Positions 6,612 to 27,845 are shown, counted from the first letter of the stretch. The stretch is DNA of 64,000 nt from an uncultured Peptococcaceae bacterium (GCA_947254645.1 CAMYDW010000001.1:63433-127432), one strand, 5' to 3'. Numbers and translations are program-made. Notes: generated from the sequence alone by a model not told the origin.

Positions 6612-7271
6612 GTGACATCCCTCAAGGCTTTGCCTGGCGTTAAAAGATGTTATTTTAAAAAGGGTGACTATCTCATTCGTATGGGCCAACGTATTGACTA
6701 TGTGTACTATCTTGAGAAAGGCCATGTCCACCGTGAAATGGTCAACGAAAATGGAGCCCGTACCTTTTTATCCCAGAAAATCGGTGGACAGTCTATTCAA
6801 TCGATTGTAGGCTTGCTCTCTCTTTATGACGAGCAAGGAAGAGATTTTGCGGATAATGATTTCATTGCCGCAACAGATTGTGTGTGTTATCGTATTCCCT
6901 CTGAAGCATGCAAGGAATTTTTTTTATGCCATCCCAAGCTTTTAGAAAAAGTGGTGTGTACAGCAGTGGCTGTTTCCAACGAGGTGCGACGTGTTTATTT
7001 AACAAAAACAGAGGTGCCTGCTTATGTGCATCTTTGCCAGCTGATTCTCCAGAGCTTGGTGGAGGATGAAACAGACTTGATTTTGCCAAAAGTTTTTACA
7101 AATATTGAAATTGCCAAAAGAGTGACCGCACACAAGGTGACGGTTTCAAGAATGCTAAGGGTATTGCGAGAGGAAGGCGTGATTGAAAAGACGCCAAAGG
7201 GATATCGCATTCTAGATATGGCGGCGTTACAGGCTTACGCCAATGGAAAAAAACGTTTGGTTTATCATTAA
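6612..7271 (+). CDS. Crp/Fnr-family transcriptional regulator (cNMP-binding-like domain plus C-terminal HTH), paralog 1
   Basis: C-terminal HTH IAKRVTAHKVTVSRMLRVLREEGVI; no Fnr-type N-terminal Cys cluster; start may be GTG 6603 or 6612. Confidence 0.75.
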   Translation: MTSLKALPGVKRCYFKKGDYLIRMGQRIDYVYYLEKGHVHREMVNENGARTFLSQKIGGQSIQSIVGLLSLYDEQGRDFADNDFIAATDCVCYRIPSEACKEFFLCHPKLLEKVVCTAVAVSNEVRRVYLTKTEVPAYVHLCQLILQSLVEDETDLILPKVFTNIEIAKRVTAHKVTVSRMLRVLREEGVIEKTPKGYRILDMAALQAYANGKKRLVYH

Positions 7272-7392
7272 TAAGAAAAAAAGACTTTTGAAATTTTTTC
7301 CAAAAGTCTTTTTTTATAAAAAAACACTCTTCAAATTAAGAGCAAATCGTGTTAATCTTTAGAACGGTTAAATGAACCTGTAGGAGGTAAAG

Positions 7393-8700
7393 GTGAAAAA
7401 ACTAGTCGTTTTAATACTAATGGTGGGGCTATTAATGCCAAGCCAATATATCGCTGCTGATGAACTCATGGATTTGACACACAAGGCAGGCTACAAAGAT
7501 GCCAAAATGATCAATAGACCAAAGTCGTCAATTGTTATTGATGGTAAAACAGGGGATATTCTTTGGCAGGACAACGTGGATGAAATTCGAGATCCTGCAA
7601 GTATGAGTAAGGTTTTGGCGCTCTACTTGGTTTTTGAAGCAATGGCAGAGGGCAAATTCTCGCCAGATACCATTGTCACAGCCACGCCGGAGGATCAGGC
7701 CATTGCAAAAATTCATAGAATTAGCAATAACAATATTGTTGCTGGTGTGAATTATACGGTGTCAGAATTGATTACAGCAGCGGTGGTGCCATCTTCCAAT
7801 GCAGCGACTTTAATGTTGGCGCGCTTGGTAGAAGAAGATCCAGACCTCTTTCTTGATAAGATGAATGCAAAAGCAAAAGAATTGGGCATGACCAATTCCC
7901 ATTTTTATAATGCCAGTGGTGCAATGGCATGGGCGTTTGATGGCTATTACAAGCCAAAACGCTATGATAATTATCGCAATAATGAAACCACTGCACGTGA
8001 TTATGCGATTTTAACCTATCATTTTCTCAAGGATTATCCAGATATTTTAAAATACAGTGGGGAGTCCACTGTAAAGATCAAGGAAGGGACTCCTTATGAG
8101 GAAAGCTTCGACTCCTATAATTATTCTTTGCCAAATGGCGAATATGGCATCAAAGGGGTAACAGGGCTTAAAACGGGGTCTAGTCCAACAGCGGCTTTCA
8201 ATTTGACTGCCACAGCGAAACGTGGCGAGCAAGAAATTATTGCCGTTATTATGGGTGTCGGGGATTGGTCAGACCAAGGTGGAGAATATTATCGTCACCC
8301 CTTTGCCAATGCCCTGATGGAAAAAGCCTTTGCCGATTATGATTATAAAAAGGTCATCGAAAAGGGTGTTCAACGTATTGGTGACAAAAAGGTCAATGCT
8401 CAAAAGGATGTATATGCAACCGTTTCTGTGGATAAAGCCCCACAAATGCTAGTGAAAGAGGAGCAGCTGGTGATTGACAATGGCTTGAAAAATGTTTCGC
8501 CAATGATCGAAAAAGAGCAACAAGCCATCCTCGACCATGACGTTAGTGTGTCCGATGAATCTGCCACTTCTGCTAAAAAATCAGGGGCCTCAGATCAAGG
8601 AGAGCATGTAAGGAATATTCTTATCACTGGTGGGCTGATTGTTTTGGTTTTTGCAGGTCTGGTAATCATGAATAAGCTGCGCCATTTATTCAAAAAATAA
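7393..8700 (+). CDS. Serine-type D-Ala-D-Ala carboxypeptidase (PBP5/DacA-like) with C-terminal membrane anchor
   Basis: Signal peptide, SMSK (SxxK) active-site motif, SxN and KTG elements, C-terminal TM helix. Confidence 0.85.
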   Translation: MKKLVVLILMVGLLMPSQYIAADELMDLTHKAGYKDAKMINRPKSSIVIDGKTGDILWQDNVDEIRDPASMSKVLALYLVFEAMAEGKFSPDTIVTATPEDQAIAKIHRISNNNIVAGVNYTVSELITAAVVPSSNAATLMLARLVEEDPDLFLDKMNAKAKELGMTNSHFYNASGAMAWAFDGYYKPKRYDNYRNNETTARDYAILTYHFLKDYPDILKYSGESTVKIKEGTPYEESFDSYNYSLPNGEYGIKGVTGLKTGSSPTAAFNLTATAKRGEQEIIAVIMGVGDWSDQGGEYYRHPFANALMEKAFADYDYKKVIEKGVQRIGDKKVNAQKDVYATVSVDKAPQMLVKEEQLVIDNGLKNVSPMIEKEQQAILDHDVSVSDESATSAKKSGASDQGEHVRNILITGGLIVLVFAGLVIMNKLRHLFKK

Positions 8701-8873
8701 TAACTTAGAAAGTGCGCGTTGTTTTATCTATAAATGTCAGTATGGATCATACTGGCATTTATTTTTTTGTTAAAAGAAAATAAAAAAGCGCAAAAAGATA
8801 ACGAATGTTATCATGAAAGTGACACTTAATATATAAAATTAAATTATGTTAAAAATAAGAAAAGGGGGAGAGC

Positions 8874-10283
8874 ATGATGTCTCAAAAAAACATTGTGGCA
8901 CTTGGGCGTACGAAGAATGAGCTGGTGAAGTTGTTCATCACTGTATTCTTGCCGCTATGCTTCTTTTTTGTGCCAGTCAATGACAGTTTTACACCACAAA
9001 TTCGTTTATTCTTTGTTATTACTTTAATTGCAATTATTTCATTTGCGACCGATTCATTGCCACAAATGGGGGTGGCGTTATCCTTACCAATCATTTATGT
9101 ATTGACGGGACTTGCACCAGGACAGGTTGCTTTTGCACCATGGCTTGGTAGCATTCCATGGATGATGATTGGTGGCTTAATGCTCGCTTTGGTGCTTGAA
9201 AAAACAGGGCTTTTAAAGCGTATTGCATTCCTTTGTATTTTAGCAACGGGTGCAAGCTACAAGGGTATTATTTGGGGAATCACCATTGCAGGCGTGATCA
9301 TCAATATCATGATTCCAGGGAAAGGCGTTATTCCAATGGCTGCCTTATCCTATGGGATTTGCAAAGCCCTTGATTTAAAACCTGGGAAAGCATCTGGCGG
9401 TATCACCCTCGCAGCAGCGATGGGGTCTATTATGCCAATTCTTTATCTCTTTGCACCAGGGGGCATCATGATTCCATTGGGCATTGGGGCTTCTGCTGGC
9501 GGACCAAAAACCGTTGGCTGGTTGGAAATATTTACCAATAACGTGCCAATGGTATTCTATACTGTTTTGATGGCTTTTGTTGTGACCTTGATGTTCAAAC
9601 CAGAAAAGCCAATCTCTGGGAAGGATTATTTTCAAAATGAACTCTCTGCCATGGGGAGTATGAGCTTTGATGAAAAGAAATCCTTGTTTGTTACATTGAT
9701 TTTGATTACCTTCTTGGCAACAGGCAAGCTGCATGGTATTGATGCTGGCTGGGGTTTTGCCTTTATTCCTTGCCTATTCTTCCTACCAGGGATGGACTTG
9801 GTAGAAAACAAGGATTTGCCAAAAATGAACTGGGGCTTTATCTTCTTTATCACTGCCTGCCTTTCTATTGGGAATGTTGCTGGGGCAATGGGTATTGGGA
9901 AGATGATTGCTGCTTGGGCATTGCCACTGCTTGAAGGTAGAAGCTTCTATGTATTTTATCTCTTTGTTTGGTTGTTATTCTTTGTGATGAACTTCTTGAT
10001 GACGCCATTGGCAATGTTGGCGGCCTTTACCCAGCCACTTACAGAAATTGCCATCAGCTTGAATATTAATCCAATGACGTTGTACTACGTTATTTTAAAT
10101 GGCGCAGACCAAATTCTTTTGCCATATGAATATGCGCTTTATCTGATTTTCTTCTCCTTTGGTATGGTGAGGGTATCAGACTTTGCGAAACTGATGAGTG
10201 TCAAGGTGGTTGTCAACTTTGCACTGGTCTTTGGCTTGTTAATCCCTTATTGGAATTTGATTGGGCTTATTCCAATGCCATAA
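8874..10283 (+). CDS. Ion-transporter-superfamily permease (YfcC/DcuC/AbgT-like), paralog A
   Basis: 469 aa polytopic protein with hairpin-loop-like motifs; paralogous to the ORF at 14698-16176. Confidence 0.6.
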   Translation: MMSQKNIVALGRTKNELVKLFITVFLPLCFFFVPVNDSFTPQIRLFFVITLIAIISFATDSLPQMGVALSLPIIYVLTGLAPGQVAFAPWLGSIPWMMIGGLMLALVLEKTGLLKRIAFLCILATGASYKGIIWGITIAGVIINIMIPGKGVIPMAALSYGICKALDLKPGKASGGITLAAAMGSIMPILYLFAPGGIMIPLGIGASAGGPKTVGWLEIFTNNVPMVFYTVLMAFVVTLMFKPEKPISGKDYFQNELSAMGSMSFDEKKSLFVTLILITFLATGKLHGIDAGWGFAFIPCLFFLPGMDLVENKDLPKMNWGFIFFITACLSIGNVAGAMGIGKMIAAWALPLLEGRSFYVFYLFVWLLFFVMNFLMTPLAMLAAFTQPLTEIAISLNINPMTLYYVILNGADQILLPYEYALYLIFFSFGMVRVSDFAKLMSVKVVVNFALVFGLLIPYWNLIGLIPMP

Positions 10284-17909: not shown

Positions 17910-18563
17910 TTAGAAACCGTTTTCTAGTAAAAATTCATAAGAGATTGTAGAGGGCGATTGCGCTTTGTCTGGGGTCGCATATTGCTGTAAGCGCTCGACA
18001 TATTTGCCAATGCAATCGACTTCTAAATTAACCAGCATTCCTTGCTTGATGGTTGCAAGGGTGGTATTTGCGGCAGTGTGGGGAATGATGGAAACCGTGA
18101 AGGTGTCTTTGTCCAGGGCGGCGATGGTTAAGCTGATGCCGTCAATGGTGATGGCGCCTTTTAAAATGATATAGCGTAATAAATGCTGAGGTGGCTTGAT
18201 GGCAATGCGCCAAGCAATTTCATCCTTTGTGAGATCGACAACGGTGCCTGTATCATCAATATGGCCACTGACAATATGCCCCCCAAAGCGCCGTTGTAGA
18301 GACATGGCACGCTCTAAATTCACTGCCGCCCCAATGCGCACCTGATGCAAAGCAGTGATTTGATAGGTCACTGGCATCACATCTACTGTAAAGCTGTTGC
18401 TGGTAAAAGCCGTGACCGTGAGACAGACCCCGTTTACTGCAATGCTATCGCCGAGATGAATGTCTTCGAGAATCTTCTGACAGCCAATGACAAGGGACCC
18501 AGAGTGGGCACTGATATTTTTGCTGATGAGGTGTCCTTTTTCTTCAATCAATCCTGTGAACAT
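17910..18563 (-). CDS. ribE: Riboflavin synthase alpha chain
   Basis: MFTGLIEE ... duplicated lumazine-binding repeats. Confidence 0.95.
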
Positions 18564-19654
18564 GACACTGTCACTCCTTTGATGAGTAAATCCTCTCCGA
18601 GAGGGTGGTAGCTGATTTCTGTCAAGGCCAAGGCCTGTGTTGCCAACTCAACACCTTGGCCTTTCACAGGGGTAGGGGCCTCGGTGCCACCGAAAAGCTT
18701 GGGTGCAAGATAGGCGTGTACCTCATGAATAAGCCCTTCATCCAGAAAACTGCCATGGATGGTGGCGCCTCCCTCAACGAGAACACTGTCGATATGGCGT
18801 GCCCCTAATGCTTTTACAAGCGCCTTTAAATCAAGGTGGCCATCTTCTTTGGCGGGCAGCACACAGACCTCACAGCCTCTGTCAAGATAGGGCTGATGTT
18901 TGGCAGGGTCTTTCACAGTGGTGGCGATGAGCACTGGTGCGAGGTGGGTGGTTTGCACCAATTGGCTATTGAGGGGGAGCAGTAGGTTGCTGTCGCAAAT
19001 AATCCGGATTGGCTGATGGGCCTCTGGCAAACGTGCGGTCAGCAAGGGGTCGTCTGCTAAGACTGTGCCAATGCCAACTAAAATCCCAGCCACTCGGGCA
19101 CGGGTCTGATGGGTGTGTGTGCGTGCCATTTCACCTGTAATCCATTTGGCATGCCCTGTTCTTGTGGCAATTTTGCCATCTAAGGTCATCGCATATTTGC
19201 TGATGATATAAGGGGTTTGATGGGTGATAAAATGAATGAAGGCAGCATTTTGTTGACGACAGGCTTTCTCACAAATACCTACAGTGACTTCAATGCCAGC
19301 GTCTTCAAGCTGAGCAATGCCCTTGCCAGCGACCAATGGATTGGGGTCTTTTATGCCGATGACAACGCGGGCAAGCTGTGCACCTATAATCGCTTCGGTG
19401 CAAGGGGGTGTTTTGCCAGTATGACAACAGGGTTCTAGTGTCACATACATGGTGGCGCCTTTGGGATTTTCTGTGGTATTGGCCAGTGCTTCACGTTCAG
19501 CGTGCAAGGCGCCAAATTTTGTATGGTAGCCTTCGCCAATGACTCGGCCATTTTTTACAATGACGGCCCCCACAAGGGGATTGGGATTGACATAGCCTGC
19601 GCCTTTTTCCGCAAGGGCGAGGGCGTGTTGCATCATTTTTTCATCTATTTGCAT
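18548..19654 (-). CDS. ribD: Bifunctional diaminohydroxyphosphoribosylaminopyrimidine deaminase / 5-amino-6-(5-phosphoribosylamino)uracil reductase
   Basis: Deaminase motifs HAEREAL ... PCCHTGKTPPC plus reductase domain. Start at MQIDEK (19654) behind GGAGG; the ORF extension to 19900 is the translated riboswitch. Confidence 0.9.
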   Translation of the reverse strand: MQIDEKMMQHALALAEKGAGYVNPNPLVGAVIVKNGRVIGEGYHTKFGALHAEREALANTTENPKGATMYVTLEPCCHTGKTPPCTEAIIGAQLARVVIGIKDPNPLVAGKGIAQLEDAGIEVTVGICEKACRQQNAAFIHFITHQTPYIISKYAMTLDGKIATRTGHAKWITGEMARTHTHQTRARVAGILVGIGTVLADDPLLTARLPEAHQPIRIICDSNLLLPLNSQLVQTTHLAPVLIATTVKDPAKHQPYLDRGCEVCVLPAKEDGHLDLKALVKALGARHIDSVLVEGGATIHGSFLDEGLIHEVHAYLAPKLFGGTEAPTPVKGQGVELATQALALTEISYHPLGEDLLIKGVTVSCSQD

Positions 19655-19721
19655 GGAAACCTCCAAATAAAAAAGCCTTGAAGAAGTCTCTTCAAGGCAA
19701 CGGGAAAATAGATAGGTGCCA

Positions 19722-19912
19722 ACAAAAAAACTCCGAAATGACAGAATCATTCCAGAGCTTTTGCATACACTTATCCTAATACATCTTCTTCTATCCAGAC
19801 TATACTGTTGGTTTTGGAATTTCACCAAATCCTGATTTGAACCTATGCCAAATCCTGCGCAAGTGCGCTCGCGGACTTTACCGCCAATCGGGAATCTCAC
19901 CCTGCCCTGAAG
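19722..19912 (-). ncRNA. FMN riboswitch (RFN element) with terminator expression platform, leader of the rib operon
   Basis: Reverse complement reads AGGGCAGGGTGAGATTCCCGATTGGCGGTAAAGTCCGCGAGC ... GGTGAAATTCCAAAACCAACAGTATAGTCTGGATAGAAGAAG, then CTCTGGAATGATTCTGTCATTTCGGAG followed by a T7 terminator; promoter TTGACG-17-TATACT upstream. Confidence 0.9.
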
Positions 19913-20068
19913 ATACTATGAAATTGACTAAAGTATAATGAAAAAAAAGTGTGCCGTCAAGAGAGAAATCTTCTTTCAAAAAATGATTTATGGTATACTG
20001 TTTAGTAAATAACCGTTTTTGCCTTTGTATAAATCAATAAATTATACTATGCTTTTTATCATGAAAGG

Positions 20069-20701
20069 ATGAGTGCGTTGTCAGAAAAAGAAAAGCTTCA
20101 ACAGCTTGCATCTCAGATTCAGGCTTGTAAATGTGACCAGCCTTATTACTATGTAAGCTACTCCACACGTGATGGTGAGAGTGTCTATCAGGATGTATTG
20201 GCCCTACAACAAGCTGGCAAAAATTTATGGATTGATGTCGATGTGAATTTCAATACGGGTGAAGGCTATAACAGCACTATTTTCAATAGACTTGCAGATA
20301 CCAATTGTCTTGGCATTTTGTTTTTTATGAGTGCTCAGTCGATGACCTCTGCGCAAAGCACCAAGGAAGTGGCTTTTGCCACCAGTCATCGTGTGCTTGA
20401 TGGACGTGGCGAAGCATTGCCAATTTGCGTTGTTGCCCTTGAAGACATTGAGTTTGGAGATATTGAAAAGTGGGTGGAGGGCTCTCTGTATAGCCGCTAC
20501 CGTGAAGAAAAATTGAGTGCCTTAGAAGCAGAACGTATCGAAAAATATCGTCATAAATATAATAATAAAGTCAACCAAGCAGTGACAAAATTTGATTTAT
20601 CAGAGTGTATTTTAAAAGTGCTCAAAACCCAAGAAAAGGCATTTGTACCAATGCAGGACGGCGCTGAAAAAAGAGTAGAAAAAATACTGTCAAGCTTATA
20701 A
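20069..20701 (+). CDS. TIR-like domain protein (about 130 aa TIR/flavodoxin-like N-terminal domain plus about 80 aa helical C-terminal tail)
   Basis: YYVSYSTRDGESVYQDVLALQQAGKNLWID and ILFFMSAQSMTSAQSTKE match the TIR beta-A/alpha-A/beta-B and beta-D/alpha-C pattern (FISYS..D ... L..AL...G..V..D ... vvLS.nY..S.WC..E); own promoter; monocistronic. Confidence 0.5.
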   Translation: MSALSEKEKLQQLASQIQACKCDQPYYYVSYSTRDGESVYQDVLALQQAGKNLWIDVDVNFNTGEGYNSTIFNRLADTNCLGILFFMSAQSMTSAQSTKEVAFATSHRVLDGRGEALPICVVALEDIEFGDIEKWVEGSLYSRYREEKLSALEAERIEKYRHKYNNKVNQAVTKFDLSECILKVLKTQEKAFVPMQDGAEKRVEKILSSL

Positions 20702-20742
20702 TTTCCTTGACGGCTCTATGATGCTCCTGTATAATTAATATT

Positions 20743-20839
20743 CGGATGTGGGTTTATTCCCAGATCGAAACCGCATGTCGCTGGTTCCAAAAGACTTCGG
20801 TCACCTCGTGGCAGCGAGTATTCTCAGGGAGGTGTAATC
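20743..20839 (+). promoter_or_regulatory. Ribosomal protein L21 (rplU) leader, structured 5' UTR downstream of promoter TTGACG-18-TATAAT (20706-20735)
   Basis: About 95-nt GC-rich structured leader (GGTTCCAAAAGACTTCGGTCACCTCGTGGCAGCGAG) preceding rplU, as in the Firmicutes L21 leader family. Confidence 0.55.
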
Positions 20840-21151
20840 ATGTACGCTATTATTGAAACTGGTGGTAAACAATACAAAGTTGAAGAAGGTATGACTTTAG
20901 ATGTTGAACTTCTCCATGCTGAAGCTGGTGACGTTATCGACGTTGACGCTGTATTGATGTTAAACCAAGATGGTCAAGTAAAAGTTGGTAGCCCTTATGT
21001 AGAAGGCGCTAAAGTAAGCTTGAAAGTTGTTGAAAACGGCAAAGCACCAAAGATTGTTGTTTTCAAATACAAAGCTAAAAAGAACTATCGTCGTAAAAAA
21101 GGTCATCGTCAACCTTATACCCGCGTAACTGTTGAAAAGATTGTTGGCTAA
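20840..21151 (+). CDS. rplU: 50S ribosomal protein L21
   Basis: [17 protein letters not shown] ... Confidence 0.97.
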
Positions 21152-21840: not shown

Positions 21841-24943
<3,103 letters not shown>

Positions 24944-27242: not shown

Positions 27243-27845
27243 TTATAAATAATCCTGTAGGACTTCCCAGGTTTCAGCATATACAGCATCCTCATTTTGA
27301 TTGGCATTGATGACAATAACATTGTCATCGGTGCGCACCTGAGCAAGCATCAGATAAAGCTGACGTATTTGATACAGCTGATGGAGTGTTTCGTAACGTT
27401 CTGCAATTTCGCCACGTTGTTCAATACGCGCCATAGCCTCTTGCTCTGGAAGGTCATAGAGCAAGGTGACTGTTGGGTGAAGGCGTGCGTCTGCTTCCTT
27501 ATTGAGGTTTAGCACCCATTCGAGGGTCAGGTGTTGGCTATTGTAGGCCAAGGAAGAGAGCAGATAACGGTCACAGAGAACAATTTCTCCTTGGGCAAGA
27601 TGTGCTTCGATGGTTTTGATGTGATCAAGGCGGTCGGCGGCAAATAGGAGTGTCAGTGTGGCTTCATCAAAGCTGGTGTCAGTGAGGAGCGCTTTGCGCA
27701 CCATGCTGCCAATCGGTCCATCGCTTGGCTCTCGAGTCACAAAAACCTTCTTGCCAGTCGCTTCTAAGTGGTCTTTTAGATGAAGGAGTTGGGTGCTTTT
27801 TCCACTGCCGTCAATGCCTTCAAAGACGATTAACGTTCCACTCAT
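27243..27845 (-). CDS. tmk: Thymidylate kinase (dTMP kinase)
   Basis: P-loop FEGIDGSGKST, DRY motif (CDRYLLS), lid region; overlaps the trpS stop by 4 nt. Confidence 0.8.
   Translation of the reverse strand: MSGTLIVFEGIDGSGKSTQLLHLKDHLEATGKKVFVTREPSDGPIGSMVRKALLTDTSFDEATLTLLFAADRLDHIKTIEAHLAQGEIVLCDRYLLSSLAYNSQHLTLEWVLNLNKEADARLHPTVTLLYDLPEQEAMARIEQRGEIAERYETLHQLYQIRQLYLMLAQVRTDDNVIVINANQNEDAVYAETWEVLQDYL

Follow-up and report, generated by a model that had tools for sequence, protein, structure and literature searches.

Gene, start codon and transcription signals

The window, by which we mean the whole 64-kb stretch of Peptococcaceae DNA analyzed here, carries a 210-codon open reading frame on the forward strand at positions 20069–20701. 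The YYYVSYSTRD, VYQDVLALQQAGKNLWID and ILFFMSAQSMTSAQSTKE motifs, on which the original prediction of a TIR-like protein was based, are all found in its sequence. Housekeeping operons lie on both sides, as had been described: the rib operon with its FMN riboswitch on one side (Table 1), and on the other side rplU-prp-rpmA, followed by a gene for a MutS_V-domain protein and then by obg.

Throughout, residues are numbered according to the 210-aa reading frame from the ATG at 20069. The true start is probably not this ATG but the TTG at 20078, giving a protein of 207 aa, because the sole Shine-Dalgarno sequence overlaps the ATG, the orthologues begin 7–9 nt past the same motif, and a length of 207 aa is also given by the public gene call for the identical protein. 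The Shine-Dalgarno sequence is kept as GA(A/G)AGGA in 9 of the 10 orthologous upstream regions.

That the gene has its own promoter, as was proposed, is plausible, since the candidate extended −10 element is conserved in orthologues despite different upstream genes. The sequence TGnTATAAT is present approximately 50–80 nt before the start of the TIR gene in lineages L001, L008, L009, L010, L012, and L014, and, across lineages that differ in their upstream genes, a terminator of the preceding gene comes before the TIR gene. A weaker promoter-like site (20019–20048) was picked up upstream of the gene by pattern scan.

At the 3′ end, the promoter and leader of rplU follow the TIR stop codon in every lineage, and are also present in L027, which lacks the TIR gene at this position. 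In L009, L014, and L042 an intrinsic terminator is located between the TIR stop codon and the rplU promoter. On the basis of the conserved promoter and leader and of these terminators, we rejected the TIR gene as a member of the rplU operon. A pattern scan found no terminator between the two genes in the window, so some read-through into rplU is possible there. No L21 leader or other RNA family of Rfam was detected in 19900–20900 at E ≤ 1. Judged from its conserved promoter and ribosome-binding site, the TIR gene is predicted to form a separate, monocistronic transcription unit.

Table 1. Features of the TIR gene and its immediate surroundings (positions in the window).
Feature	Position	Strand	Basis or remark
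FMN riboswitch heading the divergent ribD-ribE-ribBA-ribH	19779..19918	-	Rfam RF00050, 106 bits, E = 2e-24
Candidate extended −10 of the TIR gene, TGgTATACT	19991..19999	+	Read from the sequence and the orthologue alignment
Shine-Dalgarno sequence GAAAGGA	20063..20069	+	8 nt before TTG 20078
TIR-domain protein, most likely CDS	20078..20701	+	207 aa, TTG start
TIR core	20141..20455	+	Residues 25–129; Pfam TIR_2, secondary structure of the model, invariant columns
Glu100 codon GAA (Glu97 in the 207-aa protein)	20366..20368	+	Position of the TIR catalytic glutamate
C-terminal half	20456..20698	+	Residues 130–210
rplU promoter TTGACG-17-TATAAT	20707-20735	+	Promoter scan, 11/12 matches; begins 6 nt past the TIR stop
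rplU promoter with conserved leader (5′, ~100 nt)	20707..20839	+	Alignment of 10 loci; context, outside the TIR gene

Fold, invariant residues and sequence relatives of the protein

The protein matches the Pfam family TIR_2 (PF13676) over residues 28–129 with an E-value of 3.8e-6; at 27.8 bits, the match falls narrowly short of the curated cutoff of 28. All 20 aligned family members match the same model, with a best E-value of 1.5e-10. Other profile searches gave less: no meaningful match was obtained from NCBIfam, a single-sequence search of solved structures returned noise only, and the family profile run against solved structures at E ≤ 10 gave a TLR TIR chimera (7ylf, E = 0.076) as its sole match. 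An AlphaFold2 model computed from the 20-sequence family alignment has a mean pLDDT of 92.3 and a pTM of 0.90 for the whole chain, and shows a flavodoxin-like α/β fold with a parallel sheet (βA–βE) that superposes on solved TIR domains. Foldseek matched it to the TIR domains of RPS4, RPPT, SPARTA, AbTir, BtpA/TcpB, and PdTIR, with SARM1 and the plant TIR domains matching more strongly than BtpA. The TIR pattern read from the N-terminal sequence in the original prediction, for which a structure search had been suggested as a check, is thus borne out by the Pfam match and by the fold, and AlphaFold2 and Foldseek place the protein among TIR domains. Membership of the nucleoside 2-deoxyribosyltransferase or LOG-like families was rejected, as the best structural and profile matches do not lie there.

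Within the TIR core we identified βA (YYYVS), αA, βB (LWID), a BB-loop-like segment (NFNTGEGYNS), βC (GILFFM), αC with E100, and βD. The C-terminal half had been predicted to be a coiled-coil tail of approximately 80 aa, which is at odds with the model: residues 132–144, 151–163, 174–188, and 199–209 form four helices of 11–15 residues that, together with a strand at 189–193, belong to a single compact domain (pTM 0.90). The Foldseek alignments to plant TIR domains extend over approximately 189 columns, so that part of residues 130–210 corresponds to the latter half of a TIR fold into which the family has placed insertions of its own. The protein consists entirely of this N-terminal TIR domain.

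The alignment of 20 family sequences contains 42 invariant columns. These include Y28, Y31, and S32 in βA, W54, I55, and D56 in βB, the BB-loop-like series N60..G64.G66-Y67-N68, the cysteines C20 and C80 and, in the C-terminal half, K159, Y160, K163, Y164, and N165 (motif KYxxKYN). E100 is invariant in 20/20 members, and in the family-profile search the segment SAQSAKE is aligned to CWCQYEL of 7ylf in such a way that E100 falls on the glutamate of the WCxxEL motif. The assignment of a glutamate to the catalytic position of TIR domains therefore stands, a position we take to be that of the catalytic glutamate in SARM1 (E642), RPS4 (E88), and RUN1 (E100). The tryptophan that usually precedes the catalytic glutamate (WCxxE) is absent and Ala/Gln are found instead (SAQSxKE), which counts against an NADase activity.

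A word-indexed search recovered 43 homologue clusters at 90% identity, with proteins of approximately 200–210 aa that are 46–70% identical to the window protein. All 43 clusters carry a precomputed PF13676 match, and two bear the name toll/interleukin-1 receptor domain-containing protein (Peptococcaceae bacterium). In an exhaustive profile search of 1.84 billion representatives only three sequences, one full-length and two fragments, scored at E < 1e-30, with a gap in score between 325 and 119 bits below them. Next come 352 relatives at E < 1e-10, in which the TIR module forms the N-terminus of a long multidomain protein (300–1700 aa) and the C-terminus varies, consisting of Sel1 repeats or of regions without a Pfam match; these relatives show weak matches to the ThsB, SAVED-TIR, and Argonaute-TIR defense models. 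When prokaryotic species were scanned, each represented by a single genome, all 14 loci found belonged to Peptococcaceae, including the cultured Peptococcus simiae. By these searches the TIR gene belongs to a very small family that appears confined to Peptococcaceae. The labels of several source genomes identify them as metagenome assemblies from the human gut.

The nearest of the multidomain relatives (P0049-P0071, E = 1e-29 to 1e-17) share with the window family an N-terminal helix, a βA strand of the form C-D-x-x-K-P-(F/Y)-x-(F/Y)-(V/I)-S-Y, the W-I-D motif, a cysteine before βC and the glutamate, and some of the alignments reach profile position ~190, thereby including the helical extension. 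In P0049, P0050, P0052, P0055, and P0057 a glutamate is present in the matching motif, as read by eye from the unaligned sequences. Unlike these proteins, with their 300–1700 aa and variable C-termini, the window family has no such additional region, and it is set apart by the NFNTGEGYNS loop, invariant and specific to it, and by the motif KYxxKYN. The window protein thus looks like a stand-alone derivative of the N-terminal TIR module of multidomain proteins.

Conservation of the locus and descent of the gene

The TIR gene is located directly upstream of rplU-prp-rpmA-mutS-like-obg in approximately 12 species-level lineages of Peptococcaceae, on the same strand as rplU and 142–415 nt from it (the window species, L044-L047, and L005/6, L008, L009, L010/L038, L012, L013/L023/L024, L014, L016, L017/L026, L018/L025, and L042/43). 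What precedes the gene in this group differs: the rib operon in the window, a beta-lactamase-like gene in L005, rpsF-ssb-rpsR in L008, and proC in the L009-L042 group. In L001-4/L019 a tetR gene and an MCRA (oleate hydratase family) gene are found between the TIR gene and rplU; L011 begins with a like arrangement and then reaches the end of its contig.

Three lineages hold the TIR gene away from rplU. In Peptococcus simiae (L020/L021) it is placed between rpsF-ssb-rpsR and a pirin gene, which makes this the second lineage, after L008, with rpsF-ssb-rpsR directly upstream. In the most divergent lineage (L022/L040) its neighbors are speB (arginase) and a cation-diffusion-facilitator gene, and in L015, a complete MAG chromosome, it is followed by two tetR genes, an ABC transporter, an MCRA gene and an LCP-family gene, with rplU elsewhere. 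One species (L027-31, L035, L036) has the order AI-2E, DUF1002, MacB-type ABC, flavodoxin, class IV aminotransferase, rplU, and the TIR gene is absent within 9 kb upstream of rplU. L015 and L027 have no diagnostic flank in common. When the clade was sampled through the MutS_V protein, independently of the TIR gene, the TIR gene was found to adjoin rplU in 4/5 species groups, the fifth being the species that lacks it upstream of rplU. Neither integrases nor defense genes nor any conserved partner adjoin the TIR gene at any of the loci.

These arrangements suggest that the ancestral order was probably rpsF-ssb-rpsR, TIR, rplU-prp-rpmA-mutS-like-obg. In the simplest history, later rearrangements or insertions would have occurred on either side, with the TIR gene retained after each one that can be traced. 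Strict conservation at this position in all relatives, which had been named as a sign of a housekeeping role and hence as evidence against a defense module, is therefore largely what the neighborhood survey found: it holds in approximately 12 lineages, the exceptions being the three lineages with the gene elsewhere and the one species without it.

Pairwise protein identities of the TIR protein and the adjacent MutS_V protein are closely correlated over nine non-redundant loci (Pearson 0.92), the mean identities being 65.8 and 64.8%, respectively. The synonymous divergence of the gene is similar to that of its neighbors, with dS values of 0.60 (TIR), 0.70 (MutS_V), and 0.62 (Obg) for L014/L016, and of 0.32, 0.39, and 0.39 for L016/L017. 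For the same pairs, where divergence was usable, dN/dS is about 0.014–0.10 for the TIR gene and 0.024–0.15 for MutS_V. The GC content of the gene tracks that of the host locus between 35 and 55% (r = 0.90); in the window it amounts to 40.4%, against 43.6 ± 3.1%, and the likelihood of its codon usage is native. Recent horizontal acquisition was rejected on the grounds of GC content, codon usage, dS and co-divergence with the neighboring genes. The comparisons point to a gene that is vertically inherited and held under strong purifying selection.

Relatives of the TIR gene were found neither among IMG/VR viral contigs, in a family-profile scan, nor among INPHARED phages and PLSDB plasmids, by tblastn, and carriage on mobile elements was rejected on this basis. 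No defense-type partner is present within ±10 kb of the gene or across the 64-kb window. PADLOC, applied to the 52 other ORFs of the window and to the 10 nearest genes, returned generic ATPase-, ABC-transporter-, and kinase-like matches only, in agreement with the reported lack of a SIR2, SLOG, STING, or Macro partner nearby. The sole match that was traced to an ORF (27243–27842) is likely a thymidylate kinase. The further proposal, that the gene is a minimal defense or abortive-infection module or the partner of a distal effector, receives no support from the comparative data on position, co-divergence, selection and the lack of mobile copies.

Proposed activity and role

We propose that the gene probably encodes a cytoplasmic, single-domain TIR protein of ~207 aa that is ancient, single-copy and vertically inherited, rather than a mobile defense cassette or a member of the rplU operon. 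By analogy with characterized TIR domains, we put slightly better than even confidence in a Glu100-dependent activity, that of an NAD(P)+ glycohydrolase or cyclase, which is switched on by self-association of the TIR domain; the case for NAD+ cleavage comes from the fold and one residue (E100). As a monomer the protein would be inactive, as in SARM1, AbTir, ThsB, SpbK, and the plant TIRs, a latency that would be required of any constitutively transcribed NADase. Once the TIR domains have self-associated, Glu100 would serve to break the bond between nicotinamide and ribose in NAD(P)+, and ADP-ribose, a cyclic ADPR isomer or both would be released. As an adjacent effector is absent, the protein would act either by depleting NAD+ or through a signal detected by a receptor that is encoded at an unlinked locus. 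Compared with the TIR domains of SARM1, AbTir, and RPS4/RUN1/RPP1, the window family shows 10–19% identity, lacks the Trp-Cys before the glutamate, and has extra helices inserted in its C-terminal half; the biological context differs from that of SARM1, AbTir, and the plant TIRs as well.

For the role of the protein, a cell-intrinsic physiological function in stress, dormancy or NAD-derived signaling is favored because the pattern is that expected of a core gene, although we place it somewhat short of an even chance. A more specific version is tentative: the protein may be a domesticated, non-immune TIR enzyme, in which an NAD-derived signal or a controlled depletion of NAD(P)+ would couple growth, dormancy or translational state to a cue. 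Equally tentative is its evolutionary component, namely that such an enzyme may have been fixed beside ribosomal-protein and Obg genes through the whole history of the Peptococcaceae. To our knowledge, every functionally characterized bacterial TIR protein is immune- or virulence-related, with roles in anti-phage defense or virulence and usually a mobile or patchy locus, so the prior for a defense role stays high, and we know of no physiological, non-conflict role described for a bona fide bacterial TIR domain. The variable C-termini of the closest sequence relatives, typical of conflict systems, also count against a non-defense reading.

A precedent of another fold exists for an NAD-depleting enzyme that belongs to the core genome and has a physiological role unrelated to phages: NatT of the NatR-NatT system in Pseudomonas aeruginosa is reported to be a core-genome RES-domain toxin that depletes NAD(P)+ and drives persister formation (PMC11535050). 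NatT has a RES fold and a cognate antitoxin, whereas the window gene encodes a TIR domain and has no adjacent partner.

The domain call itself is already public, as the gene is annotated as a TIR domain-containing protein in MAGs. What appears to be new, from these comparisons, is its evolutionary behavior: family-wide synteny by ribosomal-protein operons, co-divergence, purifying selection and absence from mobile elements. A literature search of incomplete coverage returned no described bacterial TIR with housekeeping or core-genome behavior. The finding as a whole is one of sequence-level comparison, in which a TIR protein with a catalytic glutamate behaves as a core gene and is constrained by purifying selection no less strongly than its housekeeping neighbor. 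If the protein is immune, this would be an innate-immunity gene fixed over family-level timescales, which is rare and bears on the retention of defense genes; if it is not, TIR NAD+ chemistry would have been recruited for ordinary bacterial physiology, comparable to SARM1 in animals. The case is testable, since Peptococcus simiae has named strains that can presumably be grown in culture, and the protein is both small and modeled with high confidence.

Among the alternatives to a physiological function, a credible one, if clearly below even, is that this single gene, fixed in the chromosome, encodes an SpbK-type sensor-effector of abortive infection. SpbK, encoded on the mobile element ICEBs1 of Bacillus subtilis, is a single-gene TIR abortive-infection protein triggered by the SPβ portal protein YonE, which induces filaments that activate the production of ADPR and N1-cADPR (PMC12847820). 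Unlike that of SpbK, the window gene is a chromosomal one that shows synteny and vertical inheritance throughout the family, with no mobile or patchy distribution, and a search of solved chains with the family profile (E ≤ 10) found no sequence relationship between SpbK and the window family. The remaining probability for the role is shared by a split, ThsB-like generator, a protein with another substrate or a scaffold function, and a host-directed, Tcp-like protein.

It is unlikely that the protein is not an NADase at all but an N-glycosidase or transferase of TIR fold whose substrate is another nucleotide (compare nucleoside 2-deoxyribosyltransferase, LOG/PpnN, and MilB), or a non-catalytic TIR scaffold.

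A ThsB-like generator, which upon infection would produce a cADPR-type or His-ADPR-type messenger activating an effector encoded elsewhere in the genome, is improbable. PADLOC does report a match to ThsB1, which is weak and not significant (E = 0.013), and a thsA-like gene (SIR2-SLOG or Macro-TM) is adjacent neither in the window nor at ~20 distinct loci. As far as we know, the genes of known Thoeris systems are adjacent to each other and patchily distributed. Unlike them, the window gene lies outside a defense island and without an adjacent thsA, which is also missing at the orthologous loci with called genes. Membership of Thoeris appears unlikely, given the lack of an adjacent thsA at these loci and a ThsB match short of significance.

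Very improbable, in our view, is a host-directed protein of the Tcp type (compare TcpB/BtpA, TcpC, and TirS), through which gut Peptococcaceae would disturb TLR signaling or NAD+ of the host. The human-gut labels of several source genomes and the Foldseek matches to BtpA/TcpB and PdTIR fit such a protein, but the BtpA matches are the weaker ones, no signal peptide or known translocation domain was seen when the sequence was read by eye, the TIR domain is N-terminal and occupies the entire protein, and the most divergent lineages keep the gene too.

Hardly tenable, finally, is a sporadic and recently acquired minimal defense or abortive-infection cassette that ended up between housekeeping operons by chance. 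Such a cassette would fit with a TIR domain that has a catalytic-type glutamate, with a single gene under its own promoter, and with nearest relatives that carry variable C-termini, a trait of conflict systems, and show weak matches to the ThsB, SAVED-TIR, and Argonaute-TIR models, but phage, plasmid and viral-contig collections hold no copies, the surroundings hold no defense genes, and its sporadic or recently acquired status appears already contradicted by the one locus shared across a bacterial family, the co-divergence, a dS equal to that of the neighbors, a dN/dS of 0.01–0.10, and host-like GC content and codon usage.

Junction between the TIR gene and rplU

An insertion site separates the TIR gene from rplU in the related Peptococcaceae loci listed in the table below. 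One lineage carries a tetR gene paired with a gene of the MCRA (oleate hydratase) family at this position. In the complete MAG chromosome OZ007004.1 (L015), the same junction has also gained a second tetR gene and an ABC transporter, and rplU is no longer adjacent.

The 5' leader of rplU is strongly conserved across 10 Peptococcaceae loci, based on an alignment of the window with L005, L008, L009, L010, L012, L013, L014, L042 and L027, the last from a species that has rplU and no TIR gene within 9 kb upstream. The conserved blocks within the leader include GGATATGGGTnTTTTCCCAGATCGAAACCGCATGC and GGCAGCGAGTATTCTCAGGGAGGTG. No Rfam family matched this region, even at E<=1, and it is therefore not recognized as an L21 leader. 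Folding of the single sequence gave a z-score of only -1.1.

Further downstream, the gene encoding the MutS_V protein is located between rpmA and obg in all Peptococcaceae loci examined, with 52-64% identity of the protein between loci. MutS_V is the sole Pfam domain of this 601-aa protein, which has a long, hydrophobic N-terminal part that apparently spans the membrane. A PADLOC search returned no match for it.

Features of the TIR locus and of related loci
Feature	Location	Strand	Remarks
Codons of C20 and C80, TIR protein	window 20126-20128 and 20306-20308
rplU 5' leader, ~100 nt	window 20736-20839	+	from consensus rplU promoter to rplU start codon
601-aa MutS_V protein	window 21841-23646	+	between rpmA and obg
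Insertion at TIR-rplU junction	L001-L004, L019 (about 6690-9335); L011; L015 8600-15700
P0057 and upstream gene	L048 186-3368

Conserved cysteines and multidomain relatives

The TIR family contains two invariant cysteines, C20 and C80. Reading by eye of five distant multidomain relatives identified a cysteine at both sites in most of them, P0050 being a relative that lacks the first (the C20 site). In four of the five, a further cysteine is found, also by eye, three residues ahead of the catalytic-type glutamate (VCAEL). A redox or metal role for the family cysteines is conceivable in these anaerobes.

Among the nearest multidomain relatives is P0057, a protein of 414 aa with an N-terminal TIR domain. 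Its gene lies 24 nt downstream of a gene for a 637-aa protein, in which no Pfam match was found, and the two genes look like a two-gene operon. By eye, P0057 shares a C-terminal module of unknown function with P0049, another multidomain relative, in which the module looks duplicated.

Neighboring genes and annotation

In a single lineage (L008), genes for a NUDIX hydrolase and for the NAD-salvage enzyme nicotinate phosphoribosyltransferase (L008 1734-4064) precede rpsF-ssb-rpsR, at a distance of 2-4 kb from the TIR gene on its upstream side; this proximity is probably a coincidence.

The TIR orthologue P0031 (L005 6001-6627), a 208-aa member of the TIR_2 family, contains no substrate-binding-protein domain. 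Its JGI/IMG name, 'ABC-type branched-subunit amino acid transport system substrate-binding protein', looks like a mis-annotation.

Starts in the mechanical ORF list are overextended, as exemplified by the 450-aa 'ribD' ORF (window 18548-19900, minus strand), which overruns the FMN riboswitch at 19779-19918 on the same strand. The true length of RibD is 368 aa, in line with the public gene call for the identical locus at L044 1470-2576.
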